In this document: piece after piece, positions 11,221 through 54,162 of the stretch
How positions within the stretch are numbered: position 1 is the first letter of the stretch
Layout of the letters: each line of letters opens with the position of its first letter
Assembly (NCBI GenBank): GCA_000997385.1
Contig: LCBT01000003.1
Span: 64,892-128,891, forward strand
Reading direction: 5' to 3'
DNA: 64,000 bases
From: Candidatus Daviesbacteria bacterium GW2011_GWA1_41_61
GTDB lineage: Bacteria; Patescibacteriota; Microgenomatia; Daviesbacterales; UBA10151
Position numbers and translations under genes: made by a program
The notes under the pieces: generated by a model
What the model was told of the DNA's origin: nothing
Database searches by the model: none
What the model saw: the letters and a program-made list of their open reading frames with translations, nothing else

Positions 11221-11485
11221 AAGAAAAAAGAAAATTACCTCCAGGGATTTGGGGATAGATTTGCAGTCTCAAAAAGAGCAAGAATTTTTTTAAGAGATTT
11301 AAAGAAAATAGGAAATTACCAAAAGTAAATCCCTTGCAGAAAGAGGCCAAGATATGTCTTTAAAAATAGGAATAGCGGGAACAGAACAAATCATATTGAG
11401 GCTAATTACATACCATTACCACCTAAATCCACCTTGTAAAGTTTCTATATTGCATTTTCTGGAGGAACTTCTTATTATTAAATGC

Positions 11486-29949: not shown

Positions 29950-30032
29950 TGCCGGGAGAGGGACTCGAACCCTCATGATTTTGCAACCAAAGGTTTTTGA
30001 GACCTTCGCGTCTACCATTTCGCCACCCCGGC
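29950..30032 (-). tRNA. tRNA-Leu (anticodon CAA), type II with long variable arm
   Basis: Hand-folded cloverleaf: 7 bp acceptor (GCCGGGG/TCCCGGC), GG-containing D-loop, anticodon stem AAGGT/ACCTT with loop CTCAAAA (U33, A37), long variable arm, T-arm GAGGG-TTCGAGT-CCCTC. CCA not encoded. Confidence 0.9.
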
Positions 30033-32538: not shown

Positions 32539-32952
32539 ATGGCTATGTTTACTTCAACACCTACTTCTTCCCCGGGAAAGATTTTAATTGTCGACGATGA
32601 TGATGATATCAGAAATATCTACAAAGATTATTTAACTGCCAATGGGTTTAAGGTCGAGCTGGCAACAAATGGTCAGGAAGGACTGTCCAAGATTCTTCAA
32701 GGAGGATATGATCTGATACTTTTAGATATTATGATGCCCAAAATAGATGGGTTGGGGATTTTAAGAAGGTTAAAGGAAAAACCTTTAAATCAAAATGTTT
32801 ACAATGGTCCCATTGTGGTTTTATCAGCCTTAAGGCAGGATGAAGTTTACAATGAAGCTTTAAGGTTAGGGGCCAAGGGCTATATTGTTAAATCAGACAT
32901 TACCCCCAAAGATCTATTAGATAAAGTAGTAGAGCTCCTCAAAAAACCCTAA
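32539..32952 (+). CDS. Single-domain response regulator (CheY-like receiver)
   Basis: KILIVDDDDDI, phospho-acceptor Asp in LILLDIMMP, KGYIVK. Confidence 0.8.
   Translation: MAMFTSTPTSSPGKILIVDDDDDIRNIYKDYLTANGFKVELATNGQEGLSKILQGGYDLILLDIMMPKIDGLGILRRLKEKPLNQNVYNGPIVVLSALRQDEVYNEALRLGAKGYIVKSDITPKDLLDKVVELLKKP
32854..32952 (+). repeat. 99 bp direct repeat, copy 1 (last 99 nt of the response-regulator gene including the stop)
   Basis: Identical at every position to 37065..37163. Confidence 0.85.
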
Positions 32953-37064: not shown

Positions 37065-37163
37065 GAAGCTTTAAGGTTAGGGGCCAAGGGCTATATTGTT
37101 AAATCAGACATTACCCCCAAAGATCTATTAGATAAAGTAGTAGAGCTCCTCAAAAAACCCTAA
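37065..37163 (+). repeat. 99 bp direct repeat, copy 2 (orphan copy of the response-regulator 3' end)
   Basis: Identical to 32854..32952. Not attached to a receiver-domain ORF. Confidence 0.85.
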
Positions 37164-39371: not shown

Positions 39372-39500
39372 CTTTTTTAAAGATCTGATTTCTTGAAGTG
39401 TACCATACATTAATACTTGGTGGACAGTATCCGGTGATCTAATATCTGCTGTGGTTGAATACCACATACGCAGGTGGTTTTGTACCTCACAGCAGAGTAG
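39372..39500 (+). repeat. Repeat R2 (99 bp) fused to an XRE-tail remnant, copy 1
   Basis: 39372..39470 is identical to 51823..51921. 39471..39500 encodes QVVLYLTAE*, matching the 3' end of the XRE gene at 43941..43970. Confidence 0.75.
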
Positions 39501-39576
39501 GATCTAAAATATACATCTGTTAAGTATCCGATAGTGATATGTTGACAACTGATGTAGAATAAACTTATCTTAAGAT

Positions 39577-40698
39577 ATGGTTGAGAGTTATACTGACACT
39601 CCAATTTCATTGTCTCCAGTCATAAAAGCAGTCTCTGGTGGTTGTAACTTACGCTGTAATTACTGCTTTTATTCTGGTAATCAGCCAGAAATAAAAAGGA
39701 TGAGTGTTGACACCCTAGAAGCTCTTACTAAACATTTATTAGAGTCTCCATCGAAACATTTTAATTTTATTTGGCATGGCGGTGAGCCAATGCTATTAGG
39801 AATAGAATTTTATGAGAAAGCGTTAGAAGCACAAACGAGGTACAAAAGATCAGATCAAGATATCCGTAATTCTCTCCAAACGAATGCTACTCTTATCAAT
39901 CAGGGATGGGTAGACTTTTTTAAAAGAAATAGTTTTGGTGTAGGAGTAAGTATTGATGGTCCTGCTGAGCTTCATGATTTAGTGAGGGTACAGACCGATG
40001 GAAGGGGGTCTTATGATCAAGTGGTATCAGGAATCAATCAATTGAAGGCAGCTAATATTTCCTTTGGTGGGATAGCGGTCGTAAATAGGATAACTGTCAA
40101 CCATCCAGAGACTATGTTTGCTTTTATCAAAGATGGAGGAATACCAATGGCTTTAAATCGGTGTAATGCTAACACTGATGATCCGGAAGAGGTTAGAAAA
40201 TTAGCGGTTGGTCCAGCTGAGTATAACGCATTTTTATTAAAGATATTTGATCTATGGATCAATGAAAATAATCCAGCGATCAAAATCCGTCCTCTTGATG
40301 AATTAGTTAGGGCAACCTTAGGCTATCATACAGAGAGTTGTAGCTTTTTAGGCCAGTGCGAAAGATATTTTACAGTTGATTTTAATGGCGATGTGTATCC
40401 TTGTGATGAGTTCCTTAATGATAGGTATCTATTGGGGAATATTAAAAGACAGGCAGTAAATGAGCTTTGGCAAGGTGGGGATTTTAGAAGATACTATTTA
40501 GGAAGGCGTGGTGTAATTATTAACTGTGAGGGGTGTGAGTGGATGGATGTGTGCAATGGCGGATGTATAAGAGATTGGGAAGGATCTAAAGGTATGTTTA
40601 ACCCGAAAGAAATTAGCTTTTGTGAAGCAAAAAGGTCGTTATTTCAAACTATAAAATTAAGATTGTCAGAGTTGGGATATACTAGAGGTATAATCTAA
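39577..40698 (+). CDS. Radical SAM/SPASM-domain enzyme (anSME-like peptide-modifying maturase), cassette 1
   Basis: CNLRCNYC radical SAM cluster motif, GGEP. C-terminal SPASM cysteines (CSFLGQC..CDEF...CEGCEWMDVCNGGC). Confidence 0.85.
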   Translation: MVESYTDTPISLSPVIKAVSGGCNLRCNYCFYSGNQPEIKRMSVDTLEALTKHLLESPSKHFNFIWHGGEPMLLGIEFYEKALEAQTRYKRSDQDIRNSLQTNATLINQGWVDFFKRNSFGVGVSIDGPAELHDLVRVQTDGRGSYDQVVSGINQLKAANISFGGIAVVNRITVNHPETMFAFIKDGGIPMALNRCNANTDDPEEVRKLAVGPAEYNAFLLKIFDLWINENNPAIKIRPLDELVRATLGYHTESCSFLGQCERYFTVDFNGDVYPCDEFLNDRYLLGNIKRQAVNELWQGGDFRRYYLGRRGVIINCEGCEWMDVCNGGCIRDWEGSKGMFNPKEISFCEAKRSLFQTIKLRLSELGYTRGII

Positions 40699-40723
40699 TT
40701 ATAAAAGAAAGAAGGTGAAAAAT

Positions 40724-40957
40724 ATGCTAAGAGAAGCAGAAACGGCAGCATCTACTGACGCAGAAACATTAGATCTAACAGCTGTTGTACCTGTTGAACC
40801 GGTAGAGCGAAGTGTCAGAGAACCAAACTTGGTCATTGAAGAGGTGCTAAAAGGATCTAAGAAGCTTATTACACTTTGGTCGGGAGATCATAGCGATCAT
40901 GTAGATGTTAACTTTCCTTATGGTGACTATGCTGATAGATGGAGTGATAAAGCTTAA
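40724..40957 (+). CDS. Small acidic precursor-like peptide (77 aa), cassette 1
   Basis: GAAGGTG ribosome-binding site. Helical acidic N-terminal region. C-terminal core WSGDHSDHVDVNFPYGDYADRWSDKA with repeated aromatic/His-x-Asp triplets. Confidence 0.5.
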   Translation: MLREAETAASTDAETLDLTAVVPVEPVERSVREPNLVIEEVLKGSKKLITLWSGDHSDHVDVNFPYGDYADRWSDKA

Positions 40958-41046
40958 AACTTTATCAATATTATATAATCAGTATTAAAGTATTTAGCAT
41001 CTTAGGGTATTATATATTTTCATAAAACGGAAGTTTATTTTGAGTA

Positions 41047-42033
41047 ATGACTATTAAATTTCAGATTTCTGAAACAGCTAATTTTTGGCATTTTGTGTCA
41101 AACTTAGTTAGTTGGCATGATAGTGTCAGGCTCTATTATAGAGATTATTGGTTAGATCAAACAGGTGATTTTACAGAAATAGAGGAAAAATGTTTAGAAA
41201 AGTTGAAAGACTTTTTCAAAAAGTATACATATGGGGAGAATTACTGGGGCAAAGTTTTTTTACTAGGAAATAATAATGTTTGGGAAAAAGCCGGGCAAAA
41301 ATTTACTGCATCTGAGATTGAATTATTAAAAGAGGCTTCGGAAGTTTTTTACCGTCGTTTTAGAAAAATTTGGGATATTGATCAGCATTTATTGAAAGTT
41401 TGGAAAATACGTTTAGAAAAGACTAGTAAAAGGTTTGTGACAGAGTCCCTTATTCAGGATTTGGATGTATTTTTTAATTACAAACAACCCCTAAAAAGCG
41501 TCACAGTTTTTCTTCTAATGTGTGAGAAAAGAAATGATCCGGCAGGGGGAGGAGCAAATTTAGGTAAAGGATATCTTACTTTGGAGGTCTCAAGAGCTGA
41601 TTATGATGCTATAAGGCCAGCCTGGCTACTATTTTGGCATGAACTGACACACAACCTCTGGCAGGAAGATAGCTCTACCTACCAACAATTAAGAAGAGAC
41701 TTCTCTGATCAAATGAAGAATGAAGGTTTAGACGGGAAAATTCTGCAAATACCTACTTCCAGGATTATTAATGAGGTAGTGGTTGATTCACTTTTCCCTA
41801 AGGGTTATCTTGCCAAGAAACATTTCGACTTTCCAGTTGAGTTAATTTTTAATCGTTTCGGGGAAGGTTCTAAAAAGCGGTTTAAGGTGGAGGATTGGCA
41901 TTACTATTTTGCCTATACTTTAAAGGATTTAGCTAAAGATTATATAGAAAATGGGAAGGCTATTGATATGGATTTTTTTAAAGAGATAAAAAAACAATAC
42001 ATAAGATTTTCTAAAGATTTCAGGAGAAGCTAA
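41047..42033 (+). CDS. HExxH-motif protein (putative Zn metallopeptidase), cassette 1
   Basis: WHELTHNLW. No other recognised domains. Confidence 0.45.
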   Translation: MTIKFQISETANFWHFVSNLVSWHDSVRLYYRDYWLDQTGDFTEIEEKCLEKLKDFFKKYTYGENYWGKVFLLGNNNVWEKAGQKFTASEIELLKEASEVFYRRFRKIWDIDQHLLKVWKIRLEKTSKRFVTESLIQDLDVFFNYKQPLKSVTVFLLMCEKRNDPAGGGANLGKGYLTLEVSRADYDAIRPAWLLFWHELTHNLWQEDSSTYQQLRRDFSDQMKNEGLDGKILQIPTSRIINEVVVDSLFPKGYLAKKHFDFPVELIFNRFGEGSKKRFKVEDWHYYFAYTLKDLAKDYIENGKAIDMDFFKEIKKQYIRFSKDFRRS

Positions 42034-42262
42034 TAAATCTTTAAAATTTTAACTATCACTGGTCCTCCTGGGGAGAGGTATTCTATTTCTTCACCAACTT
42101 TATGGAAAAGGATAGCTTGAGCTAGGGGAGCTTGAGGTGAGATATAAGTTACATCTTTTTTTAAAGGTTGATCAGTTTTTAAGCGATACAAATTTTTAAA
42201 GCAACACAGAAGCAATTTATTATCCATGAAAAAAGTTTATCAACTGGGGAAGCATCTGTGAC

Positions 42263-42751
42263 ATGAAAGTAACAAGTGTTTATATAATTGTTCAAAATAA
42301 GTTAAACAAGATATTACTTTCTAAAAGAGCAGATATTCCTCTTTGGGTTCTTCCAGGTGGGCATGTAGAGGAAAATGAGCTAGCTGAAGTTGCTGCCTTA
42401 AGGGAGTTTCATGAAGAAACAGGTTTGAAGACAAGAATAAAAACAACTATAGCATGTTACAAAAATATAGGGAGTAGGAGTAGGAAATATCTCTTTTTAG
42501 GAGAACTAACTGGAGGGAAAAAAACTCTTTCAAACGAGACTGTTGCCTTAAAGTGGGTAGATCTAAACCACTTACCTTCCCCTATGACGATTTATGAAAG
42601 AAGGAAGATCGAGGACTTTATTAATTACAGAAACAAAATTATTATAAGGGAGGACAAAATTAATATGATAGGGGAAATTTTAAGCCAGATTAAAAATCCT
42701 ATTATATTCGGATATCTGCTTTATCGGTTAATAAAATTGTTAATTTTTTAA
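42263..42751 (+). CDS. Nudix hydrolase
   Basis: Nudix box LPGGHVEENELAEVAALREFHEETGL. Confidence 0.75.
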   Translation: MKVTSVYIIVQNKLNKILLSKRADIPLWVLPGGHVEENELAEVAALREFHEETGLKTRIKTTIACYKNIGSRSRKYLFLGELTGGKKTLSNETVALKWVDLNHLPSPMTIYERRKIEDFINYRNKIIIREDKINMIGEILSQIKNPIIFGYLLYRLIKLLIF

Positions 42752-42782
42752 AAAAATACGTTTAAATTTAAAGTTTAAAAAT

Positions 42783-43148
42783 ATGAGTAATCATTGTCCG
42801 GAACGAATGTTAGAATACTATACTGCCGCACAAAATGCTTACAGTAATTGGGGTAGAGATCTAAAAAGACCTGCTCTATATGCTCTTCATAGTGGTTTTT
42901 TGCCAGAAGGACAAAATCTATCACATTTTTCTGTGCAAAACTACATGGAGATGGCTTTCTCTGATAAAGTTTTTGATCGAATTATTTTTTGTGAGAGTTT
43001 TTCCCATGCAACTAATAAGCCAAGGACGATATCGGAAGCGAGGAGGTTGTTAAAAAATGGCGGAATGATGATTATTGCTGACTGTTTTGTCAGTAGGGGG
43101 GATTTAACCAATGATCAACTATTACAAGTGAGGCGAATGGAGGTTTAG
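42783..43148 (+). pseudogene. C-terminal fragment of a class I SAM-dependent methyltransferase
   Basis: Has post-motif-I elements (DRIIFCESFSHA, LLKNGGMMIIADCF) but no GxGxG SAM-binding N-terminus. Confidence 0.45.
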
Positions 43149-43163
43149 TATATTATTTTGTGA

Positions 43164-43970
43164 GTGCAGAGAGAGTGTAATACACTTTTTAGCCAATTTA
43201 TGTTAACAGCTACTTTAGGAAGGTTAATTAAAGATCATAGATTAAGAAAAAGGCTTTCACAGCTGGAAATTTCTTTAAGGATAGGTTGGAGGGATACCAC
43301 CAGGTTATCTAAGATAGAGCAGGGAAGGGTGGGGAAACCTCTTAGGAAGACAGTAGATAAGATCATGGAGGCTCTAGATTTAAATAAGCAGGAAAGAGGA
43401 GAGTTTTTACTAGTTGGAGGATATCTACCCACAGATGAGGAAATTAAAAAGGTTATCAAACTGGTAAAAGAAAGAATAAACACTTGGCCTTACCCAGCCT
43501 ATTTGTTAGATTTCTCCTGGAGAGTTCTGTGTCTTAATCAACATACTATTGATATCTTTAAGTTACCTTCTGCTCTAAAGAGCATTTCTTTTAAAAAAGC
43601 TCCAAATCTACTGGAATTCCTTTTTTCTCCCAAGGAGGTTCTACCGGTTAAAATAGAAAAAGGTGATGATGACAAATCAGTCCAACCTTTCCCGATAGCA
43701 CAAGTTGCTCAATTTAAAGTAGAGCAAAATGGCAGGGATAATGAGAAGTGGTATAAAGATTTAATCAAAAAGTTGATGCAAAATGAGCAATTCCGTCAGG
43801 TTTGGCCCAAAGTAGATCCCAAACAGTATCACAAAAAGTTGTTAGATTATGAATATAAAGTAATTACTTGGCCAGACAAAAGTCACAAAACCTTTAGGTT
43901 TCATATTTTCACCTCCAGATTAATCCAAGACCAAAGGTTCCAGGTGGTATTATACCTCACAGCAGAGTAG
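43164..43970 (+). CDS. XRE-family HTH regulator with C-terminal domain
   Basis: HTH LSQLEISLRIGWRDTTRLSKIEQG. Its last about 29 codons (43884..43970) form the gene-tail repeat found at four other sites. Confidence 0.65.
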   Translation: MQRECNTLFSQFMLTATLGRLIKDHRLRKRLSQLEISLRIGWRDTTRLSKIEQGRVGKPLRKTVDKIMEALDLNKQERGEFLLVGGYLPTDEEIKKVIKLVKERINTWPYPAYLLDFSWRVLCLNQHTIDIFKLPSALKSISFKKAPNLLEFLFSPKEVLPVKIEKGDDDKSVQPFPIAQVAQFKVEQNGRDNEKWYKDLIKKLMQNEQFRQVWPKVDPKQYHKKLLDYEYKVITWPDKSHKTFRFHIFTSRLIQDQRFQVVLYLTAE

Positions 43971-44144
43971 AGTATTAAAATTTAACGTCAAATATTTGAT
44001 AGAAGAATCTTGCTAAATCATTCAAGAGAGATAAAAGGGGATAAAATTCCCATTAAAATCTTAACACTCTATCATATAGGGACTATAAACATTTCAAGTG
44101 CTTAATGTATGTCTGTATACCCAACTAACTCCAGTTTGCAACTT

Positions 44145-44654
44145 TTAGGTGGAAATGAGTTGAAAACTATCAGTTAAAAGTGTACTCATCTCTTTCTGGT
44201 AAAGGTAGATGTTTTCAAAGAAGTTTAAACAGGATTCTTTGAATTTAGGGAAAGTGTCATAGTATTGGTTGTAGGTAACTTTCTGATGAAACAGTCTCCA
44301 TAACCTCTCAATCAAGTTTAAATTGGGTGAATATGGTGGCAGGAATTTAGGGATTAACCTTGGATGGTATCTTAGATAGTTTTGGACCTGTCTTGAGTAG
44401 TAATACCTGGCATTGTCCCAAATCAGATAAATCCTGCCTGTTGGGTGCTTTTCTAATAGTTGGTCCAGCAGATTGATGGTGGAAGTTGAGTTAATCCTTA
44501 AATCTTCCCTGATGATTACATCATGGGTTTTAGCATTTAAGGCCCCATTTAAGTTTAACCTGTCCCTGCCTGTATTAGACTTAATTAGTTTATCAGTCCC
44601 CTTTAGTATCCAACCATACGAAGGTCTGGTATTATGCTGGGGATGAGTTTGCAT
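44145..44654 (-). CDS. IS630-family transposase DDE-domain ORF (+1 frame relative to orfA)
   Basis: LIWDNARYYYS, LPPYSPNLNLIERLW. 23 nt overlap with orfA. Confidence 0.7.
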   Translation of the reverse strand: MQTHPQHNTRPSYGWILKGTDKLIKSNTGRDRLNLNGALNAKTHDVIIREDLRINSTSTINLLDQLLEKHPTGRIYLIWDNARYYYSRQVQNYLRYHPRLIPKFLPPYSPNLNLIERLWRLFHQKVTYNQYYDTFPKFKESCLNFFENIYLYQKEMSTLLTDSFQLIST

Positions 44655-45174
44655 CCAGGAAGTAGATCTGGTCAGCTGCTTCTAACTGATTTTTAAGTTT
44701 TAAGTACTCATCTAAAAAGGCTCGCTGTTTGTCTAAATCAGCTTTGGCTGGTACAAGCTTGGGTTTCTTGTAGACAAAGCCTAACCTGTGGAGGAGTTTA
44801 GTCATACCAATAACTGAGTATTTAATGTGATATGTGGATTTAATATACCGGGCTACTTCTTTAGCTGTTAAGTAAATATGCTCACCTTCTGCTAAATGGT
44901 TTTTGAGTTCCAGCTCTTGGGTTTTGGTAAGTCTTGGATGACCACCAGTGTAGTGGAACTGCAATAATCCACTCAGTCCCTCTTGCTTAAAACTTTTAAC
45001 ATATCTCCTGATGGTTGTCTCGTCTAAAAGCAGTGCAGCAATTATCTGGGGATATGTGAAGCCTCTATGAACCATGAGTATGGCTTTGATTCTATCAGCC
45101 AACCTTTTGTCTCTTACCTGTTTATGTGCCTTTCTCAAAACCAGCACTTCTTCTTCAGTTAAAATTTCGGGCAT
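44632..45174 (-). CDS. IS630-family transposase N-terminal (HTH) ORF
   Basis: Helix-turn-helix region and HYTGGHPRL. Confidence 0.7.
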   Translation of the reverse strand: MPEILTEEEVLVLRKAHKQVRDKRLADRIKAILMVHRGFTYPQIIAALLLDETTIRRYVKSFKQEGLSGLLQFHYTGGHPRLTKTQELELKNHLAEGEHIYLTAKEVARYIKSTYHIKYSVIGMTKLLHRLGFVYKKPKLVPAKADLDKQRAFLDEYLKLKNQLEAADQIYFLDANSSPA

Positions 45175-45255
45175 TAACTATTATGGGATCACACTTTTAC
45201 CCTACTTGTCAAATTTTAGGTTGCAAACTCATTGAAGATTGGTATATGTACTCCT

Positions 45256-45528
45256 TTAGGTACATACAATGACACAATTGCAGTTACAATTAAAACAGCC
45301 AGCATCACAATCACAGCTGCCTGCATAATCTATACCTCTATCTGTTCTTCCCAGTGCCTGGACGAATGGTTGAGTAAAAATAGATTCAAATTCCATAGTT
45401 CGTCTCTGACTTTGCAATTGGGTTTGTTCCGCTAACAGTTGGTTAGCTGCAAATTCATATTTTGGTGTTAACTGCTCATTTTGCAATTGGGCTTGTTCCA
45501 AAGATTCGTTCTCGACTTCCCGCAACAT
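45256..45528 (-). CDS. Cys/Asp/Asn-rich precursor-like peptide (90 aa), cassette 2
   Basis: GGAAGGAGG ribosome-binding site 8 nt before the ATG. N-terminus MLREVE.. resembles cassette 1 peptide (MLREAE..). C-terminal core GSCDCDAGCFNCNCNCVIVCT. Confidence 0.6.
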   Translation of the reverse strand: MLREVENESLEQAQLQNEQLTPKYEFAANQLLAEQTQLQSQRRTMEFESIFTQPFVQALGRTDRGIDYAGSCDCDAGCFNCNCNCVIVCT

Positions 45529-45564
45529 TAAAATCACCTCCTTCCGATATTATTATCTTAGCAT

Positions 45565-46287
45565 TTAGTTAATTTGCTTTATAACTTCTAGAAAATCCTT
45601 GTTGTAGACATGCCTAAATTTTTTATAAAAGATTATATTATTACATCTATCACCCAGTGACGACAGAAAATATAAAAGTTGAAGTTTGCCATATTTTTTA
45701 ATTAAGTAACTTACTGCTCTCCAACTGTGCCAATAGCCCTGTATAGATGGTTTGGCTACATTCTTACTCCATTGTTTTGATGTTCCTAGCAAGAAAATCG
45801 TCCGGGGGTTAAAATTGATACTAAAGTTACTAGCTAAGTTTATCTGGCCAGCAACAAAACAGGCCAAACCCTCATCAAACCATTGCGGTCTATAACCTTT
45901 ATGTATTGCACTGGTAAATAAGTGGGCAATCTCATGGCAAAGGATCTTTTTAAACTCATTTTTATTATGATTACTCACTTTCTCAAATACTTCCGGGCTA
46001 AATATACAAATCTGGCTTTGGGTCGATGGGTCAGCACGACCTACCAGCCAGGGTGGAGTTTTATGGCCAGATAGATCATCCATTTCTTGGCGTGTATATA
46101 ATAAAACCAAATCGACTCCATCAATTTCCCTTTTGAAGAACTTCACATTTCTTCTGTAACATTGCTGCAACATTTTTTTTACTTCACCTATAAAATTGTC
46201 ATCAAATGAATAATAGATTGTACCTTTGGCGGTAGTACTTAAGCTGAAAAGCTCTCTTTTTTTGTTTTTAATCATTAATTGTCTCAT
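45565..46287 (-). CDS. HExxH-motif protein (putative Zn metallopeptidase), cassette 2
   Basis: CHEIAHLF. Lies between the radical SAM gene and the peptide. Confidence 0.5.
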   Translation of the reverse strand: MRQLMIKNKKRELFSLSTTAKGTIYYSFDDNFIGEVKKMLQQCYRRNVKFFKREIDGVDLVLLYTRQEMDDLSGHKTPPWLVGRADPSTQSQICIFSPEVFEKVSNHNKNEFKKILCHEIAHLFTSAIHKGYRPQWFDEGLACFVAGQINLASNFSINFNPRTIFLLGTSKQWSKNVAKPSIQGYWHSWRAVSYLIKKYGKLQLLYFLSSLGDRCNNIIFYKKFRHVYNKDFLEVIKQIN

Positions 46288-47647
46288 TAACTGGTTGAAT
46301 AAAGCCTAGTTTGAATAGTCTAAAGAAAAATTCATTCGGGGCTTCTGTCAAACTAAATTGGTCTTGTATTTCCTTAATTGTAAACGGTCTCTCCCAAAAT
46401 CTTACTTCTTTTAAAGCGATATAACCTAACTTGTCAAGAAACAGGGAAGCTCTAGGACCGTTAGAGACAATACCTCCAAAATCCTCTGACCTAAATTTTA
46501 TCTTCTTCCCCAACACAAGTTTTCTATCCAGAAGATCCATAGGAGAAAAAGTCTCAGACTGATTTTGTGGCTGATTATAGACACCCTCTGGGCTTGTTGC
46601 CAAAGGATCCATACCATCAATCCCGTTACAATATTTTGCATTCATACGGCAACCGGCTCTACAGCTAGGAAAATATTCGCATTCAGATAAACATCCTTTT
46701 GGAATACGGGAACCGTCTCTCCAATCCGTCATTCTCTTCCAGATATCTTCAAGAGTTTCATTAAATATATTTCCATAAACTTCATCGGCGACAGTACAAG
46801 GCCTAACATTTCCTTCAGCGGAAATCGCACAAGTTGCAACTCCAGCAGCACACTTTCTCTCAATAAATTTTCGATAATACCCCCAATTCCCAAGAGCACA
46901 TAAGGGATATGAGATTAAGCTGTCGACATGCATTCCCTCCTCCGCTTCTAGAAACAATAAATCGTCTAACATTTTCTTATAATCTTCCTTATTCAAATCA
47001 ATTTCATCAAAGTTGATACCACCCATACATGGAGAAACTTTAGTTGCCGAAAATGAAGAGACTCCCTTACTTTTTACTAACCTACCAGTATCTAGCACTT
47101 GATCCTTATTTAAAGCGGAGACTACCATATTTGCAGTGATATCTAAGCCTTCTCCTACACAAATATCAATTCCTCTAACGGTTTGTTTAAAAGATCCTTT
47201 TCTTTGTGTTATCGTATCATGTAAGGTGCTATTACTTGCATGCAGAGAGGCAAGTATTGAGTCTACCCCGGAAATTTTTAATTCTCTGGCTAATTCAGGA
47301 GTTATTAGAGTTAGATTACTATTTATTGAGCATGCAATATCGTATTGTTTAGCTAATTTTATTCCTTCTAATAATTTTCTGCTTTTAAGTAACGGCTCTC
47401 CTCCTGTGAAGGTAAGTGCTATAATTTGATGCTGAGCAAGATACCTGATGGTGGTTTCAAGTCCAGTCAGGGATAAGGAGGAATTAGAGTAATCCTTATT
47501 CAAGTCCCGAAATTTGTCCCCCCTCCAGTAGTTGTAGCAATGTACGCAATAATTGTTACACCTAGAGGTTAACTCAATCTGAGCGTCAAGTGGCCCGCTA
47601 AGAGTTTTATACACATCTAGCGAGGGAACTAGAGGATTTCTTTCCAT
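46268..47647 (-). CDS. Radical SAM/SPASM-domain enzyme, cassette 2
   Basis: CNNYCVHCYNYW radical SAM motif, SPASM cysteines (CAAGVATC...C..CEYFPSCRAGC). Start at the internal Met with an AGGAAAAG ribosome-binding site. Confidence 0.85.
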   Translation of the reverse strand: MERNPLVPSLDVYKTLSGPLDAQIELTSRCNNYCVHCYNYWRGDKFRDLNKDYSNSSLSLTGLETTIRYLAQHQIIALTFTGGEPLLKSRKLLEGIKLAKQYDIACSINSNLTLITPELARELKISGVDSILASLHASNSTLHDTITQRKGSFKQTVRGIDICVGEGLDITANMVVSALNKDQVLDTGRLVKSKGVSSFSATKVSPCMGGINFDEIDLNKEDYKKMLDDLLFLEAEEGMHVDSLISYPLCALGNWGYYRKFIERKCAAGVATCAISAEGNVRPCTVADEVYGNIFNETLEDIWKRMTDWRDGSRIPKGCLSECEYFPSCRAGCRMNAKYCNGIDGMDPLATSPEGVYNQPQNQSETFSPMDLLDRKLVLGKKIKFRSEDFGGIVSNGPRASLFLDKLGYIALKEVRFWERPFTIKEIQDQFSLTEAPNEFFFRLFKLGFIQPVNETIND

Positions 47648-47864
47648 AATCTTTTCCTGGGCTTCTACGCGAATACTATCATTAATAAATGGTACTGTCA
47701 AAAATTTTGGTTTAACACCAGCAGGGGACAATACCAGAAATTATCAGCAGCAATGAATGGTATTTGATAGTTGTATTTTGACAAACATGGAGATGTTATG
47801 TTATTAGTAAGGATGTAATTTAAGAAGGAAGAAAGAGTAGCTAATTTGATGTTAATTTAAAAAG

Positions 47865-49244
47865 ATGGGCATTGAAAACACTAAAGTAAATGTAGATAGC
47901 TTACCGAATGCCCCCAAACAGATATACAAAACTCTTTCCGCTCCAGTTACAGCTCAATGGGAATTAACAGATTGGTGTAACCAACGATGCTTCCATTGTT
48001 ATAATTATTGGCGAAATGATAATCCAGAAACTGTTGAGCCTTCCGATAGTGTGGGGCAGATTCATCATACAATAGCAAGGGAAATTGTGGCTAATCATGT
48101 TTTTAGCGTGACAATTACAGGTGGAGAACCACTACCTTTTATCAAAAAATATGCTGAGTCAATCGGATTACTCAGAGATGCAGACGTTGATTTAAAGGTT
48201 AATTCTAACTTAACTTTGTTTGACCGAGAGTATGGCCATATTCTTAAGGATTTGGGTATTACTTCGTTACTAACATCTGTAATATCTTATAACCCTAATA
48301 CTCACGATCGTTTATGCTGTAGTCCTGGAAGTCATAAAAAAATAAGCGATAATATCAGAAGAGCTTTGGATATGGGATTTAGAGTTAGCCCAAATATGGT
48401 TGTAAGTAAACTAAATTTAGGTGATATCGAGGGAACTGCAAAGTATGTAAAAAGCCTGGGACTAACTTCTTTCTTGGCAACCAAAGCGACTGCCCCTCCG
48501 AATTGTCCAGATTTTAGCCAATATTCATTATCACTAGAAGAATTAAAGATTATGTTTAATTTGTTGAAGAAAGCAGAAGCAGAGTATGGCGTATCTGTTG
48601 ATTCACTTGAGCCTTACCCTATGTGTCATTTTCAAGACCACGATCAATTAAAGGCCTTTGGGCAACGTGTTTGTGGGGCAGGTAAATCAATATGTACAAT
48701 TGGATTTGACGGAGCTGTAAGGCCTTGTTCTCACGCAGATCAAGTTAGTGGAATAATATCGGATCAAAACAGCTTTAAAGAGTTATGGTTGAAGCTACGG
48801 CCATGGCGTACTGATGAATATTTGCCTGAAGAATGTAGTAAATGTAGTATAAGAAATGTATGTTACGGTGGATGTAGAGTTGAAGCTTGCGTAGTTAATG
48901 GAGATTTAAAGTCTAGGAATCCCTATTGTGATCCAGAAAATATTCCAAATATTAACTCCTTGGAGCTAACATGGAAAAACGATGATGTTAAATTTAATCC
49001 GGGAAGTGCTTTCCAATTTAACCCACATTTAAAATATAGAGGGGAAGAGTTTGGGGGTATACTATTTTTATCTCCTAAAGCATGGGTGGGAGTTAATGAA
49101 TATATACTGACTTTCTACAAGAAAAGAAAAGACTCACCCTTTGTTGTTAAAGACTTATCTGATGATATTGGTGTTGAAAGAGGAAGTTTGGTTGAAACGA
49201 TGCATTTGTTATACAAAAAAAATATAATTGAAGAAAGGAGGTGA
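47865..49244 (+). CDS. Radical SAM/SPASM-domain enzyme, cassette 3 (paralogue of cassette 2 enzyme)
   Basis: CNQRCFHCYNYW motif, SPASM cysteines (CGAGKSIC...CSKCSIRNVCYGGC). Confidence 0.85.
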   Translation: MGIENTKVNVDSLPNAPKQIYKTLSAPVTAQWELTDWCNQRCFHCYNYWRNDNPETVEPSDSVGQIHHTIAREIVANHVFSVTITGGEPLPFIKKYAESIGLLRDADVDLKVNSNLTLFDREYGHILKDLGITSLLTSVISYNPNTHDRLCCSPGSHKKISDNIRRALDMGFRVSPNMVVSKLNLGDIEGTAKYVKSLGLTSFLATKATAPPNCPDFSQYSLSLEELKIMFNLLKKAEAEYGVSVDSLEPYPMCHFQDHDQLKAFGQRVCGAGKSICTIGFDGAVRPCSHADQVSGIISDQNSFKELWLKLRPWRTDEYLPEECSKCSIRNVCYGGCRVEACVVNGDLKSRNPYCDPENIPNINSLELTWKNDDVKFNPGSAFQFNPHLKYRGEEFGGILFLSPKAWVGVNEYILTFYKKRKDSPFVVKDLSDDIGVERGSLVETMHLLYKKNIIEERR

Positions 49245-49248
49245 TATT

Positions 49249-49464
49249 GTGAGCAAAGAAAACTCAGTTGGTTTATTAGATATACAAGTTGTTGCTGAGA
49301 GTGAGATGACTGCACCTAAGCAAGTGGATACCACTAAGGCTTATGGAATAGTTCCTATGTTTAATAATGTGGGTGGTGCGGTTGAAGGTGATATATTCCA
49401 GTATGATGATGGTGGTTGTTATGATGGCCCAGAATGCGATGAATGCGATCCTTCTCCGTTGTAA
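49249..49464 (+). CDS. Cys/Asp-rich precursor-like peptide (71 aa), cassette 3
   Basis: GTG start with an AGGAGG ribosome-binding site at a 7 nt spacer. C-terminal core DIFQYDDGGCYDGPECDECDPSPL. Confidence 0.55.
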   Translation: MSKENSVGLLDIQVVAESEMTAPKQVDTTKAYGIVPMFNNVGGAVEGDIFQYDDGGCYDGPECDECDPSPL

Positions 49465-49618
49465 AAGGATTATTTTGGTCTATAGATTTCATCTATGGGA
49501 ATCGAAGCTCCGGGGGTTTAAACTCTCGGTTGCTTTTTAAAAGATTTTATCTGTGATAGAACTAGACTTGAGTTTTTCAATAGGTTAATCTGAGTTTAGG
49601 AGCAAATACAACTAATTA

Positions 49619-50281
49619 ATGATTAATATCAAAGTTGCTTACAATAGGGGTCGTGATGTTCAAGTGTATCTGAATTATCTGTATCAATTTAAGTCATACA
49701 AACATGGTCGAAATAATATCAGAGAAGAATTATTAAACTCATACCCTGAAGAGTTTAGGATCGCCCTGAATAATGCCCCTAATAGGTTAGAGGCAGCCAG
49801 AGTTGCAAAAAACTATCTAAAAGATAGATACATAGGTAAAAGATCCTATTTCAGAAAAGTTGCTTTAATGTTAGAAGAGGCTTGGATCAAACAAAGAGCA
49901 GATATTGAAAGACAATTGGCCGATCTTTACGGTCAAAAAGTTCCTTTTCAAATGATATGGGTTTATTATACAACTACCCCAATTTGTCCATATAATTTTA
50001 GAAAAAGAGAAATTATTGTCTCTTATAAGCGTCCGATTGATGTTCAAATAAATATTTTGAAACACGAGCTCAATCATTTTATGTTTTATAATTATTTTCC
50101 AGAACTATTAGAAGAATTTGGTAAAGAAAAGTTTGAATCATTAAAAGAAGCATTAACAGTTCTAACCAATCCAGAGGAGAAAGGGTACCCCGCTCAACAA
50201 AAACTTCGTCAATGGTTAAAAAAACAGCAGGGTACAATCCCTGAGATTATTACACAGGATAAATGGAAGAAATATCTTTAA
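49619..50281 (+). CDS. HExxH-motif protein (putative Zn metallopeptidase), cassette 3
   Basis: KHELNHFMF. Confidence 0.45.
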   Translation: MINIKVAYNRGRDVQVYLNYLYQFKSYKHGRNNIREELLNSYPEEFRIALNNAPNRLEAARVAKNYLKDRYIGKRSYFRKVALMLEEAWIKQRADIERQLADLYGQKVPFQMIWVYYTTTPICPYNFRKREIIVSYKRPIDVQINILKHELNHFMFYNYFPELLEEFGKEKFESLKEALTVLTNPEEKGYPAQQKLRQWLKKQQGTIPEIITQDKWKKYL

Positions 50282-50326
50282 AGAGGTAAAAATACTTGAT
50301 GTTCTCAAACTGAGTGTTTATTTAAC

Positions 50327-50413
50327 CACAAAACCTTAAGGTTCCATATCTTTACTTCTAGATTAATCCAAGACCAAAGATTTCAGGTGGTGCTATGTTT
50401 GCCAGCAAGGTAA
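50327..50413 (+). repeat. XRE gene-tail repeat, copy B (orphan 3' fragment)
   Basis: Encodes HKTLRFHIFTSRLIQDQRFQVVLCLPAR*. Homologous to 43884..43970 with mostly synonymous differences. Confidence 0.65.
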
Positions 50414-50442
50414 GTGATCTAGAGTTATGATATAATTAGCTC

Positions 50443-50760
50443 ATGACTCAAGTGCAAATTCAGGATCAAATAGACTCTATTAAAAATCAACTCATAGAAA
50501 AGTACAAACCACAGAAGATTTTTTTGTTTGGTTCCTCTGTAACCGGAAAGATGACCGAAGATTCTGATTTAGATTTTTTAATCATCAAAGATGATAAAAA
50601 AGATCCATACAACCGGATAGTAGAAGTTTACCATCTAATAGAAAAAGATATTGCTGCGGATTTCCTGGTCTACACACCGCAGGAATTTAGTGAAAGGTTA
50701 AAACTAGGTGATCCTTTTGTAACTTCAATACCGTCAGAGGGAAAAGTCCTTTATGGTTGA
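50443..50760 (+). CDS. Nucleotidyltransferase (MNT-type, Pol-beta superfamily)
   Basis: LFGSSVTG....DSDLDFLI motif. Confidence 0.7.
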   Translation: MTQVQIQDQIDSIKNQLIEKYKPQKIFLFGSSVTGKMTEDSDLDFLIIKDDKKDPYNRIVEVYHLIEKDIAADFLVYTPQEFSERLKLGDPFVTSIPSEGKVLYG

Positions 50761-50945
50761 AAATATGTACAGAACATGACTTGGAGTTTAATAAATTTAG
50801 TGAAGCTTCCAAACTTTTAAATCCATTTTACATTGTAACCCGCTATCCAGACTTTGTTATCTCAGTTAATAAATCTGACGCTGAAAACGCTCTCAAGATA
50901 GCAGAAGAAATTGCTGATCTAGTTAAATTGAAACTCTCTGCTTGA
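50757..50945 (+). CDS. HEPN-like C-terminal fragment, partner of the MNT gene
   Basis: Only 62 aa with a TRYPD-like motif and a TTG start. Probably degenerate. Confidence 0.35.
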   Translation: MKICTEHDLEFNKFSEASKLLNPFYIVTRYPDFVISVNKSDAENALKIAEEIADLVKLKLSA

Positions 50946-51062
50946 TCTTCTTCTAAACTGGCTGTTTCTAAAAACTCAACAGATTGTTTCAGGTATTAGC
51001 TTCTAGGTAATTTTATCCCAAGAATTGGGACAAACTTGTTTATATTTGCCAGTAGAGTAAAA

Positions 51063-51710
51063 CTAGATATGGGATTTAACCAACTTGGTAAAGAATCGTT
51101 TTATTTCCTTTGGGTCGGCAGGTGTAGTCAAAGGAGCAGGTACTATATCAAAATTTGATAAATCTCCAAAATAGACTAATTGTTCTAAAAAGATTTTTTC
51201 ATCAAAAATACTGCCGTAAACACTTTTGGCTACCGAAATGATCTGTTTAAGATCCGTATAATCATGTTTTAAAATGGTGTATAGGTCAAAATAATCCCGG
51301 TATTCACCTCTTCTGCCAATGGTATATGCCTTCTGTACAGCAATTTCTTGTACAGGGAATAAAGATAAGCCATCTTCTAACTCCAGGATCTTAAAGTGTG
51401 GTTTAAAAGGGTAATAAAGAAAGGTAATTTTGATATTGTCCTTTGTAAAAAAGGTTAGCTCGTCGGGGGTATCAACAGCAATATTGTTAATTGGAAAACT
51501 TTGGGAAAGTTTCTCCAATAGTTTTTTGGGGATCTGTGAGGTGCTGAAAAAATCAAAATCAAAAGATTTACGGTGGACAAGTTGTAAGGCAAGTGCAGTC
51601 CCCCCACTCAGTACAAAACCTTTGGTTAGAGGAAGTAGTGTCTGTAACAACTCCCTCCTTTTATTATCTAATATATCGAGGTGTAGTTTTAAGGTATTTT
51701 TGTTCATCAA
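51063..51710 (-). CDS. AbiEii/DUF1814-like nucleotidyltransferase toxin-family protein
   Basis: GFVLSGGTALAL..HRKSFDFDF motif. Confidence 0.55.
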   Translation of the reverse strand: MMNKNTLKLHLDILDNKRRELLQTLLPLTKGFVLSGGTALALQLVHRKSFDFDFFSTSQIPKKLLEKLSQSFPINNIAVDTPDELTFFTKDNIKITFLYYPFKPHFKILELEDGLSLFPVQEIAVQKAYTIGRRGEYRDYFDLYTILKHDYTDLKQIISVAKSVYGSIFDEKIFLEQLVYFGDLSNFDIVPAPLTTPADPKEIKRFFTKLVKSHI

Positions 51711-51822
51711 TTGAACTGTTGATATCTAGCACAAAATTTTTGATGAAATTGAGTGCTGGTTTTGTGTAGATCTTTTTGGGATAGTGCAGAAAAAGCTCCT
51801 TTAGCCATTTTTCTCCTAGTGT

Positions 51823-51978
51823 CTTTTTTAAAGATCTGATTTCTTGAAGTGTACCATACATTAATACTTGGTGGACAGTATCCGGTGATCTAATATCTGC
51901 TGTGGTTGAATACCACATACGTCTAGATTAATCCAAGACCAAAGATTCCAGGTGGTTTTGTATTTACCAGCAGAGTAG
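51823..51978 (+). repeat. Repeat R2 (99 bp) fused to an XRE-tail remnant, copy 2
   Basis: 51823..51921 is identical to 39372..39470. 51922..51978 encodes SRLIQDQRFQVVLYLPAE*. Confidence 0.75.
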
Positions 51979-51993
51979 TTTTAAAAAGCTCTT

Positions 51994-52785
51994 TTAAGTG
52001 GTATGGTTATTTGCTAGTTGATGAACAAGTAAGTCATCTGGATATTCAATAGCTGTTTCTATTATCTGTCTAATAGTCTCTTGGGTTAAGATAAACGGAT
52101 TACCAGTGATTCTAGCAACAAGATAAGCCTTTAAGAAAAGATCATGCAAGAAGCAAAGTTTCTTCTCCAGATATTTTTCAAAACAATTATCAATAACTAA
52201 AAGCTCATCGATTTCTTGTGAGTGTTTAAAATCTCGTTCTAACAAGAAGTATATTTTTGCGATAGTTTGAGCGCGAATTTGATCTTCAATATCACTTAAT
52301 CTGTCCTCAGACGGAAAAGGTTTATCAGCGTTTTTATATCTTCCCCAGCAAGTTTGAAAATATTGTTCATCGTTATTAAAGTACAGTTTTAATAGTCTAC
52401 TTTTCAGGGGATTTATATCTTCGTCTAAAGAAGTATGATAGTATCTTCCCATATCAATTGCGAACCTTAGATAAGCCGGAGGTGAGGAGGTAGTCAATAA
52501 AGTTTGACGATCTTGAGGAGAGAGGTAGGCTAAAGAGCCGTTTAAATAGCATTCAATAAAATCCTTAATTCTTGCTCCTGCTGCAAAGTAGATCGGCTCT
52601 ATGGTCAAAGATTGTCTATATAGATTTGCCCCTTCATCCAGGCTATCTTGTTCTGTTGCTGTTCCAAAACGAGTAACATTTTGCAAACAGATGGAGGCCC
52701 TGAATTTAAGGCTGAATTTAAAGCTAATGTATTCAAATATGCAGATAGATTCAGAGTAGCCAGGCCATACAAAAAGAATGAACAA
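51994..52785 (-). CDS. Hypothetical protein, start uncertain
   Basis: Long ORF whose N-terminal third is antisense to the transposase fragment. The real start is probably an internal Met near 52452. Confidence 0.3.
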   Translation of the reverse strand: MFILFVWPGYSESICIFEYISFKFSLKFRASICLQNVTRFGTATEQDSLDEGANLYRQSLTIEPIYFAAGARIKDFIECYLNGSLAYLSPQDRQTLLTTSSPPAYLRFAIDMGRYYHTSLDEDINPLKSRLLKLYFNNDEQYFQTCWGRYKNADKPFPSEDRLSDIEDQIRAQTIAKIYFLLERDFKHSQEIDELLVIDNCFEKYLEKKLCFLHDLFLKAYLVARITGNPFILTQETIRQIIETAIEYPDDLLVHQLANNHTT

Positions 52786-52980
52786 AGCTACATTGAGAGT
52801 TTTAACAGATCACTCAGAAAAGAGTGTTTAGGCTGGAGTAAGTATAGAGCTGATCAACTGTCAAGCCTAACTAGAGAACTAACAGATTATTTAGTGTATT
52901 ATCATACTAAGAGGCCTCATATGAGTTTAGGTATGAAGACACCAGAAAGGTTTTTAAAAGAACTAGTGTCGGATATTTAA
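52648..52980 (+). pseudogene. C-terminal fragment of an rve (integrase-core) DDE transposase (IS481/IS3-like)
   Basis: TDGGPEF and YYHTKRPHMSLGMKTPERF. N-terminal two-thirds are missing. Confidence 0.6.
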
Positions 52981-53142
52981 GTGTACATACCGGATTGGGC
53001 GTTGAAAGTAATATTTCAGAGTCCTTGACACGATTTCGTCATTGCGAGCGTAGCGAAGCAATCTCTGACATGTTTTGATACACTTTTGTCAACAAGACTG
53101 AAATATTACCGTTGAAATTAAGACACAGAAGATAAAAAATTA

Positions 53143-53685
53143 TCAACTGTATTGTGATATTAAGTTGCTAAGTTTTTCGATATCATCATACTTATGTTCA
53201 TTGCCAGAAAATTTTGTTATCTGGTAACTTTTGATTTGAGTTTGTGTTAAAAATTCTGTTAACTGATGAAAGGGGATAGCTGGATCATTGGAATTTTGAA
53301 TAAATAAAGTAGGGACTTCATAATTTTTGAATAATGAATTTAAATCAATGTTTTGGAGTTTTGCCCAAGAAAAAGCCATGCCTGCAAAAATACATTTTGA
53401 AGGTTTGAGTTTTTTAAGTTTTTTATCTGAAATTGCTTTCAAGGCAAGGATAACTCCTACAGATTTAGCAAAAATAATATAATCCTTAAAATTACTGGTA
53501 AAATCAGCTAGAGTATTGAGCTCATATTCTAGATTAAGGAACTTCTCATCAGTGCCCCAGTGGTGGTAGTTTTGAATGTATATAGAGTCGAAGTGGGATT
53601 TTAATGATGATTTTAAAGATTCTGCCCACTGCTTATTAGAAAGACTATTACCAGGTAAGATAATAAGATCCATGATTGTAAACAA
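53143..53685 (-). CDS. Putative alpha/beta-fold serine hydrolase (YdeN/RBBP9-like)
   Basis: Size and a FAKSVGV nucleophile-elbow-like motif. Weak assignment. Confidence 0.45.
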   Translation of the reverse strand: MFTIMDLIILPGNSLSNKQWAESLKSSLKSHFDSIYIQNYHHWGTDEKFLNLEYELNTLADFTSNFKDYIIFAKSVGVILALKAISDKKLKKLKPSKCIFAGMAFSWAKLQNIDLNSLFKNYEVPTLFIQNSNDPAIPFHQLTEFLTQTQIKSYQITKFSGNEHKYDDIEKLSNLISQYS

Positions 53686-53724
53686 ATAATAACCTAGATT
53701 TTCTTAAAAAGCTATTCTGAACTA

Positions 53725-53772
53725 GTTTCAGACCAAAGGTTCCAGGTAGTATTATATTTGCCAGCAGAGTAA
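53725..53772 (+). repeat. XRE gene-tail repeat, copy D (orphan)
   Basis: Encodes VSDQRFQVVLYLPAE*. Confidence 0.6.
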
Positions 53773-53832
53773 TCATTTTCCACAAAAAATCCTCAAGACA
53801 GAGGGTCTTTTGCTACATAAAATATATGTGAA

Positions 53833-54162
53833 TTAGTCTTTGTGCCAAGGCAAACGGGCATTGGGTCTCCCAAATAACCAGGCAGCGGTAATTGCTACAG
53901 CTATGGCTCCTGCTAAATATGCCCAGAAATTAGATCCTGTAAGACCTGCATCCCAAGGTAAAGCAAAACCTCCTGTTCCTGCAGCGATACCTAAAACATA
54001 AAGTCCAATGATTAAGTTTATAAATCCCCACACCACATTTAGCATAGGAGATGAAACTCTCTTAAAGGGTGTCATATGTGTTTGACCCATGATACCGGGA
54101 ACTAAATGGGGAATAGAATTCCATGTAAAGAATCCTGCTAAGAAATACCAGAGTAATTCCAT
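53833..54162 (-). CDS. Small integral membrane protein
   Basis: Three TM helices. No motifs. Confidence 0.4.
   Translation of the reverse strand: MELLWYFLAGFFTWNSIPHLVPGIMGQTHMTPFKRVSSPMLNVVWGFINLIIGLYVLGIAAGTGGFALPWDAGLTGSNFWAYLAGAIAVAITAAWLFGRPNARLPWHKD

Follow-up and report, generated by a model that had tools for sequence, protein, structure and literature searches.

A 64,000-nucleotide stretch of DNA (hereafter the window) from a groundwater genome of Candidatus Daviesbacteria, a member of the candidate phyla radiation (CPR), encodes one intact copy of a 256-aa regulator, here termed REG (43200-43970, + strand). The last 7-29 codons of this gene occur six times on the + strand in the region from 39.4 to 53.8 kb, the end of the intact gene included, as against a chance expectation of about 0. 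We consider it probable that these gene ends, or tails, are the scars of serial insertion into the 3' end of this one conserved gene; coupled with the homology-driven mechanism set out below, the proposal has about an even chance of being right. The original prediction had suggested a recombination or insertion hotspot at a conserved 3' gene end, and this is upheld by the synteny of relatives, by tail-flanked cassettes elsewhere and by a 12.6-kb segment that is encountered as present, absent and circle-joined among metagenome contigs.

In Pfam searches REG combines an HTH_31 domain with an MmyB-like (MLTR_LBD) domain, and its protein is identical to P0001, a protein of Candidatus Daviesbacteria GW2011_GWA1_41_61-type metagenome-assembled genomes (MAGs). 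At least 222 homologues covering the full query occur in Microgenomates and other CPR bacteria; REG aligns with its homologues from end to end, and the C-terminus of the family is conserved in the alignment (FHIFTSRLIxDQRFQVVLYLPA). The repeated tail peptide is the native, conserved C-terminus of this CPR-wide regulator family. Five of the copies had been predicted, as + strand, in-frame sequences ending in a stop codon, and all five are found as such. In map order, c1 (39471-39500) is a chimera, being of the c4 type up to GGTTTTGTA and of the c2 type in the distal 16 nt, CCTCACAGCAGAGTAG; c2 (43884-43970) comprises the last 29 codons of intact REG and is its current surrogate end; and c3 (50327-50413; 87 nt) is 80% identical to c2 over the 86 nt preceding the last stop-codon base. 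There follow c6 (51040-51060), a 21-nt relic, TTATATTTGCCAGTAGAGTAA, which lies between the HEPN and AbiEii genes, matches c5 at 20 of its 21 positions and was absent from the earlier list; c4 (51922-51978; 57 nt), which has a perfect 26-nt block, TCTAGATTAATCCAAGACCAAAGATT, in common with c3; and c5 (53716-53772), with 57 nt in frame (SELVSDQRFQVVLYLPAE followed by the stop), of which the 48 nt given earlier (53725-53772) fell short. Two degenerate tail patterns gave four matches each, against 0.00-0.01 expected from shuffled sequences, and recovered no tail elsewhere in the 64 kb or on the - strand. No sequence common to the regions downstream of the tails was found.

The position of these copies relative to the conserved neighborhood of the gene carries the argument. 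REG is followed directly by orf109 on the - strand, and then by the genes for aconitase (Acn, - strand) and HMGL, in three relatives (L023, L024 and L027), and it adjoins HbpS in five others (L019, L022, L030, L031 and L038). In the window only c5 sits at this native spot, 60 nt from the stop of orf109 (53833-54162, - strand), the conserved convergent neighbor that marks the native flank, and intact REG lies 9.8 kb upstream. Judged by its location, c5 is taken to be the original REG 3' end at the native chromosomal position; it is also the most diverged copy, as expected for the oldest tail. A terminator-like hairpin on the + strand (53789-53806), beginning 17 nt after the c5 stop codon, is probably the native REG terminator, and is the only site of this kind (a G+C-rich hairpin with a T-run) near any tail. 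Because c5 alone holds the native spot and the intact gene is displaced, the tails can be read as scars of repeated splitting of the gene end.

According to this reading, an incoming DNA block would carry its own copy of the REG tail, and a single crossover inside the tail would fuse the gene body to the incoming surrogate tail, leaving REG intact and displacing the resident tail downstream of the insert. The order observed in the window is REG(c2)-E1-c3-E2-c6-E3-c4-E4-c5-orf109, where E1 to E4 denote the inserts and all tails are direct repeats on the + strand. It would be generated by four such rounds, with E1, adjoining the gene, as the newest insert and E4, next to c5 and the native flank, as the oldest. 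An insert flanked by repeats could then leave the chromosome in circular form, retaining a single copy of the tail, and this circle could re-enter any related genome with the conserved gene. Integration would proceed by host homologous recombination, as a Campbell-type single crossover without a dedicated recombinase. The tail remnants range from 21 to about 110 nt in length, and this variation would arise because the length is that of the tail carried by the circle.

Over 57 nt the four independent copies c2-c5 are 74-86% identical in pairwise comparisons, and c1 is 93% identical to c2, 93% to c4 and 72% to c5. The differences had been described as largely synonymous, which is true of c2, c3 and c4 (c2 and c4 differ by 8 nt and 1 aa, c3 and c4 by 8 nt and 2 aa) and less so of c5, the most diverged copy of the window, which is separated from the other tails by 12-15 nt and 3-5 aa. 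Such coding-type divergence fits each tail having served as a functional gene end in some lineage. It might also be expected of an array of REG paralogues, each beside its own module, that have lost all but their last codons, and two full REG paralogues do occur within a few kb of each other in two loci (L021 and L033). This was how the copies had originally been interpreted, as relics of separate paralogous genes, but we regard it as very unlikely. A hidden Markov model of the full-length family, run against the six-frame translation of the window, detected intact REG and the tails (profile positions 229/239-257 at c3, c4 and c5) and no other REG fragment, be it of the HTH or of the ligand domain, so that four to five independent deletions, each ending inside the last 20-95 nt, would be needed. 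Further, it is a tail that sits at the native position of REG and the sole intact gene that is displaced, two tails of a metagenome contig (L046, see below) were copied after they had become non-coding, and a perfect 26-bp repeat flanks AbiE genes in L021.

The same tail sequences have a bearing on assembly. Being 74-86% identical rather than identical, the tails cannot be assembly duplications, an explanation to which their unique contexts are also opposed; moreover, the same tails turn up in assemblies of many samples at NCBI, JGI, ENA and Logan. Assembly has, on the other hand, shaped the identical 99-bp element to which two of the copies had been described as fused. This element is literally present in the window at both places. 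Nineteen contigs from other assemblies of the same population have a 227-bp perfect repeat, R, composed of the 99 bp, 87 bp that are missing from the window and the first 41 nt of the tail, after which the sequence continues either as CCTCAC (c1) towards rSAM1 or as TTTACC (c4) towards orf230. The left copy of R (39372-39484, + strand; 113 nt long here as against 227 nt elsewhere) starts 2 nt past the stop codon of a DUF43/BpsA_C gene and holds the promoter and 5' end of an AbiEi-like open reading frame (ORF) of the - strand together with the proximal part of the tail; of the right copy (51823-51962, + strand), likewise 227 nt long in other assemblies, the window has 140 nt. In the NCBI assembly the two copies measure 152 and 168 nt, and three assemblies show different internal deletions in R. 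Apart from its own deletions in R, the NCBI assembly (L001, L011) is also without 165 bp in rSAM1 (39944-40108) and 113 bp in rSAM3 (48278-48390). The only other long exact repeat of the window (32854-32952 and 37065-37163), which belongs to the tail of a response-regulator gene, is likewise exactly 99 bp long and measures 162 bp in a JGI contig. Directly after exactly 99 nt of each long repeat (39470/39471, 51921/51922, 32952/32953 and 37163/37164) the window is without 67-114 nt present in other assemblies. Since two unrelated repeats are both cut to exactly 99 bp, this length is probably a k-1 truncation by the assembler, and the fusion of the 99 bp to two different tail positions therefore does not look like biology. 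As a practical lesson, long repeats in older assemblies may be silently shortened.

These truncations, the different deletions of R in three assemblies and the prospect that some junctions of the variable segment described next are misjoins across the 227-bp repeat might be held to favor an origin of the repeats as a whole from misassembly of a mixed population. We find this scarcely credible, as the independent tails are not identical, lie in unique contexts and recur across the four assembly sources, and as independent genomes (L021, L046, L070 and L073) display the same architecture.

Exact-protein look-up in the NCBI, JGI, ENA and Logan assemblies recovered the same locus, with the two copies of R 12,565 bp apart in the best contig. 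All four combinations of R flanks were found among the assembled contigs (n=19): the left junction DUF43-R-rSAM1 in five, the right junction AbiEi-R-orf230 in six, the empty site DUF43-R-orf230, from which the 12.6 kb are absent, in seven including one of 27.7 kb, and the junction AbiEi-R-rSAM1, expected of a circle or a tandem, in one (L055). To the extent that contigs, in which misjoins are possible, may be trusted, these four junction types form the pattern of a segment looping out and in through R.

Comparable arrangements are found at other loci. In a different MAG (L021), whose REG is 61% identical, an AbiEi/AbiEii cassette lies between perfect 26-bp direct repeats of the tail core, AGACTAATCTCTGACCAAAGATTCCA (9069-9094 and 10013-10038), the right one of which is embedded in a tail remnant of roughly 70 nt unlike the tail of the resident REG itself. 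At 10134-11481 of this locus, the REG homologue (311 aa) has lost its stop and continues in frame as a VapB-like ORF, with a PIN_3 toxin gene after it; here too a toxin-antitoxin module has been inserted precisely where REG ends. A 1.8-kb metagenome contig (L046) has the order dksA-tailA-orf121-tailB-MNT-HEPN-tailC, where tailA is about 110 nt long and has no gene body. Its MNT is 84% identical to that of the window, and tail, spacer and MNT are collinear with window positions 50360-50760 at 75% nucleotide identity, c3 from 50360 on corresponding to the tail upstream of MNT. As its tails B and C have a 1-nt indel and in-frame stops in common, they were copied as non-coding DNA.

The association with gene ends extends beyond REG. 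In L070, L071 and L073 the same type of MNT-HEPN cassette (79-90% aa identity) is placed between diverged copies of a different gene tail, ending in KDKIPASDVPDILKN and the stop codon (KDKIP[SA]SDVPDILKN; 3160-3235 and 3936-3990 in L070, 6800-6882 and 7610-7720 in L073). The upstream copy is the end of an intact 92-aa gene in L073, both sides have remnants only in L070 and L071, and the downstream remnant begins right after the HEPN stop in L070 and L073. The cassette is compact, about 0.75 kb, and consists of a TGnTATAAT box about 8 nt before the ATG, MNT and HEPN; in L072 it occurs 15 nt upstream of REG without tail copies. In the genome of the window itself, the tail of the response-regulator gene (its last 32 codons, the stop and 63 nt) is duplicated around a 4.3-kb block of two HisRS-like genes and a polyprenyl synthase gene, as a 162-bp repeat with 160/162 identical positions in the JGI contig (L002; 4296-4457 and 8589-8750), and with the same polarity as at REG, that is intact gene, block and tail remnant. 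Given that other gene tails are duplicated around blocks, tail-duplicating insertion is not specific to REG. A pattern scan of metagenomes for the tails yielded 6 loci. MNT homologues at 70-90% identity are numerous, mostly on contigs of about 1-4 kb, as would be expected if such cassettes are situated in regions that are rich in repeats or vary between strains and at which assemblies break. The contig with the closest relative of REG (L068; 80% identical) ends 37 nt past the REG stop (3295-3332), which could be another assembly break at the tail repeat.

What might drive such insertions was sought among the ORFs of the window, comprising all called genes from 28.3 to ~63.8 kb and ten larger ORFs of 1-28 kb. 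Neither these, nor 19 kb of L021, nor the short L046 contig contain a tyrosine or serine recombinase; their transposase content is confined to an IS630 and an rve_3 fragment, and the window ORFs include no intI-like gene or integrase adjoining the array. Searches of Pfam, PHROG and NCBIfam with orf328, orf220, orf230/263, orf176/180, orf93, orf78, orf80, the 89-aa ORF and orf109 gave no match of note, and sequence searches of the PDB gave none for orf230 and chance-level ones only (E 0.6-0.8) for orf220. A single-sequence AlphaFold model of orf230 was unusable (pLDDT 36). A recombinase hidden among these ORFs was accordingly set aside, finding no family or PDB sequence support, as was a phage attP, given that the two tail patterns had 0 matches in a viral contig collection. 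Exact hybrid sequences of REG ending in the c3 or the c4/c5 tail were absent from a collection of 15 billion proteins.

An intact target gene followed by displaced repeats of its 3' end is nevertheless the textbook outcome of site-specific accretion. In such a case the inserts would be integrative elements whose attP mimics the REG 3' end, integrated by a recombinase of the tyrosine or serine type, since lost or else encoded at another place in the genome, and what is now seen would be relics akin to cis-mobilizable elements (CIMEs), mobilizable only in trans, in which the toxin-antitoxin genes are the last survivors of decay. Both the general proposal and this version of it strike us as possible though clearly less than even. 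There are close precedents: rpmG, rpsI, fda and rplL have composite islands at their 3' ends, in which CIMEs measure 1.2-13 kb and microCIMEs, devoid of genes, 130-220 bp (PMC7563491), and in tycheposon islands serial integrations leave partial tRNA scars (10.1101/2020.12.28.424599). The longest perfect runs between neighboring tails are 20-26 nt, and the perfect blocks of four tail pairs (c2/c3, c3/c4, the left and right copies of L021 and tails B and C of L046) all map to one stretch of the tail, between 57 and 29 nt ahead of the stop, as a recombination core might; the cassette edges are precise, and the left copy of R could be a microCIME. Against this stand the want of a recombinase in the window ORFs and at the two other loci, and the 0.75-kb cassette, which occurs with two unrelated gene tails while a third tail is duplicated in the same genome, so that several specificities would be needed. 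In addition, the remnants vary in length, the switch of parent in c1, 16 nt before the stop, lies outside the putative core, that is outside the best-conserved block, and the dyad symmetry of the tail does not exceed that of random sequence. The run common to c4 and c5 is of 11 nt only, and the distal 16 nt of REG (c2) differ from all other tails except c1.

The locus resembles the streptococcal accretions of elements that are integrative and conjugative (ICEs), elements that are integrative and mobilizable (IMEs) and CIMEs in that a conserved protein gene is targeted at its 3' end and kept intact, in the tandem elements separated by gene-end-derived att repeats, and in the many elements that are cargo only, without recombination genes, down to gene-free pieces of 130-220 bp with which the left copy of R may be compared (PMC7563491). 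It differs from them in that neither the array nor the window ORFs tested contain an ICE, an IME or an integrase, that a cassette can be a single 0.75-kb toxin-antitoxin operon in a CPR host, and that the repeats are of 21-227 nt with variable 5' limits and one cassette uses different gene tails. Of the hallmarks of tandem accretion, an intact target with a surrogate 3' end and direct tail repeats, the last one abutting the native flank, are seen here; the tyrosine or serine integrase is not seen among the window ORFs or in L021 and L046. Prochlorococcus tycheposons offer a further parallel, with serial integrations at one site that push older elements deeper, partial copies of the target as scars, subpopulations with excised, circular or tandem junctions, and a streamlined host with few classical mobile elements (10.1101/2020.12.28.424599); they are unlike the present case in targeting tRNA or tmRNA genes by means of tyrosine recombinases; at REG it is a regulator gene that is targeted, with no recombinase in evidence.

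The original prediction had also raised an integron-like exchange of cassettes. The small single-operon cassettes, each bounded by repeats of one orientation, the position of the newest insert nearest the gene, the frequency of toxin-antitoxin modules and a homologous MNT-HEPN cassette in two different arrays are indeed reminiscent of integrons with their intI, attI and attC, and the tail might then be a structured site equivalent to attC/attI at which a specific, perhaps unknown recombinase captures promoter-bearing cassettes. In one feature of the tails this receives some encouragement: the beginning of the 57-nt tail can pair, as a short inverted repeat, with sequence just past the stop in c3 (50344-50350/50418-50424) and in the right copy of L021 (10008-10015/10068-10075), with compensating differences between the two (TCTAGAT/ATCTAGA and CTCCAG/CTGGAG). 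As a conserved hairpin it had to be rejected, for it is out of register or absent in most other copies and in intact REG genes. No RYYYAAC...GTTRRRY core pair lies within 120 nt of any tail on either strand, the repeat is the end of a protein-coding gene, the cassettes have their own promoters and mixed orientations, and MNT-HEPN cassettes are also found without REG tails. With no intI-like gene or integrase among the window ORFs either, the strict sense of the term does not apply, and even the looser platform is highly improbable.

Recombinase-less elements can also use host Xer at dif-like sites, as do the integrative mobile elements exploiting Xer (IMEX) and the pdif modules of Acinetobacter plasmids; these modules often are toxin-antitoxin operons without a recombinase of their own, bounded by short repeated sites, and accumulate in arrays. 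The REG array is like them in its recombinase-less modules, often of toxin-antitoxin type, arrayed between short repeats. It is unlike them in three respects. First, the tail has no 11-6-11 dyad above random: the best dyads with 11-bp arms match at 6-9 of 11 positions, the same as in random 85-mers of equal composition (mean 7.0, maximum 9). Second, the sites are all direct and do not alternate. Third, no switch in cumulative GC skew occurs along the window, and a replication terminus is therefore not suggested. An Rfam search returned one tRNA at the gathering score and two chance-level matches away from the tails, and no family at the tails; with folds that differ between copies, a guide-RNA scaffold of the TnpB/IscB type or another structured RNA at the tail was dismissed.

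Between the two routes to serial insertion that merit consideration, we favor host homologous recombination over a site-specific recombinase acting in trans; as regards the enzyme and the intermediate, our confidence in it is tentative, falling somewhat below even. It is preferred because several unrelated gene tails serve as targets, no recombinase was found in the arrays of the window and L021 or on the short L046 contig, remnant lengths vary and c1 switches outside the core. It is preferred also because the repeats of recent origin, with 227 and 162 bp, are long and perfect or, in the case of the latter, nearly so, and neighboring tails have perfect runs of 20-26 nt. Such runs have about the minimal length for RecA-type exchange.

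Several observations weigh against serial insertion by homology as we propose it. Homologous exchange between segments of ~57 nt that are 75-86% identical should be very rare. On its right the cassette has a precise edge, 0-3 nt past the stop of HEPN in L046, L070 and L073, and the identity blocks of the four tail pairs are co-located; a site-specific system would produce both features. Remnants are present at only 1 of about 20 other REG loci whose flanks could be used, and the process would therefore have to be sporadic. Since R, at 227 bp, exceeds the assembler k-mers, the empty-site and circle junctions could be repeat-induced misjoins. The tails upstream of REG (c1 with R in the window, and both copies in L021) break the polarity of gene, insert and old tail; additional steps are needed to account for them, be it the decay of a copy from an earlier round or blocks containing REG that are tail-bounded and act as cassettes in their own right. 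The left copy of R, which abuts the DUF43 stop and contains a truncated AbiEi-like 5' end, does not follow from the proposal; by analogy with microCIMEs it could be a decayed earlier copy.

That the copies delimit functional modules, as had been proposed, is borne out by the gene content of the inserts. E1 (43971-50326) contains an IS630 (44116-45246) with terminal inverted repeats, orf93, a Peptidase_MA gene, two radical-SAM (rSAM)/SPASM genes, orf78 and orf220, and looks like a cluster for a ribosomally synthesized and post-translationally modified peptide (RiPP). E2 (50414-51039, + strand) is the MNT-HEPN toxin-antitoxin cassette with its own TGnTATAAT box (MNT 50443-50760, HEPN 50757-50945). 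Compared with the 130-aa HEPN of L046 (77-469, - strand) its HEPN is without about 200 nt, the N-terminal half, and given this truncation the module is probably defective. E3 (51061-51921, - strand) consists of AbiEii (51063-51707) and a small AbiEi-like ORF (51664-51918; 89 aa in full assemblies) whose 5' end and promoter are inside R. E4 (51979-53715, mixed strands) has orf230 (51994-52686, -), the rve_3 transposase fragment (52648-52980, +) and orf176 (53143-53673, -). The part of the 12.6-kb variable segment upstream of REG (39501-43199, + strand) encodes an rSAM/SPASM protein (39577-40698), orf80, orf328, a NUDIX protein (42263-42751) and a methyltransferase fragment (42783-43148).

Taken across the region, three rSAM/SPASM genes with adjacent small ORFs and an MA-family peptidase (39577-40957 and 45256-49464) resemble RiPP-type clusters, and orf93 (45256-45537, -) has a weak match to the halo-CC-star precursor family (E = 0.003). 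The rSAM1-orf80-orf328 group and a peptidase also occur near REG in L023. Upstream of the region, the window has a gene for a Fic/DOC-domain protein (15804-16805, -) and a tRNA gene (29950-30032, -), neither linked to any repeat.

The genomes of CPR bacteria (Patescibacteria) are tiny, come from uncultured organisms and are considered to contain few classical mobile elements, and how these bacteria gain accessory genes is largely unknown. The kind of process described here, the building of genomic islands at gene 3' ends, is known; the CPR host, the miniature toxin-antitoxin cassettes and the lack of a visible integrase are new. At this locus at least four gene gains, one after another at a single conserved gene, would have left a record that can still be read. 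Cassettes of the same types are met again at the ends of genes in other CPR genomes, and in natural populations one segment has seemingly been caught integrated, empty and circular. A bolder generalization, which we put forward as speculative and rather doubtful, is that small CPR toxin-antitoxin operons are mobile cassettes without a recombinase of their own, which carry the 3' end of a host gene, loop out and re-enter via this tail by host recombination or an unknown enzyme, and so build integron-like arrays behind conserved genes. Toxin-antitoxin cargo might persist by penalizing the loss of an unstable, repeat-flanked insert. If insertions proceed without a dedicated recombinase, this would provide a simple and general route by which cassettes spread among related streamlined genomes, and would also account for toxin-antitoxin operons as the persisting cargo. 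Tail scars may be used as markers that delimit islands in the MAGs of CPR bacteria.

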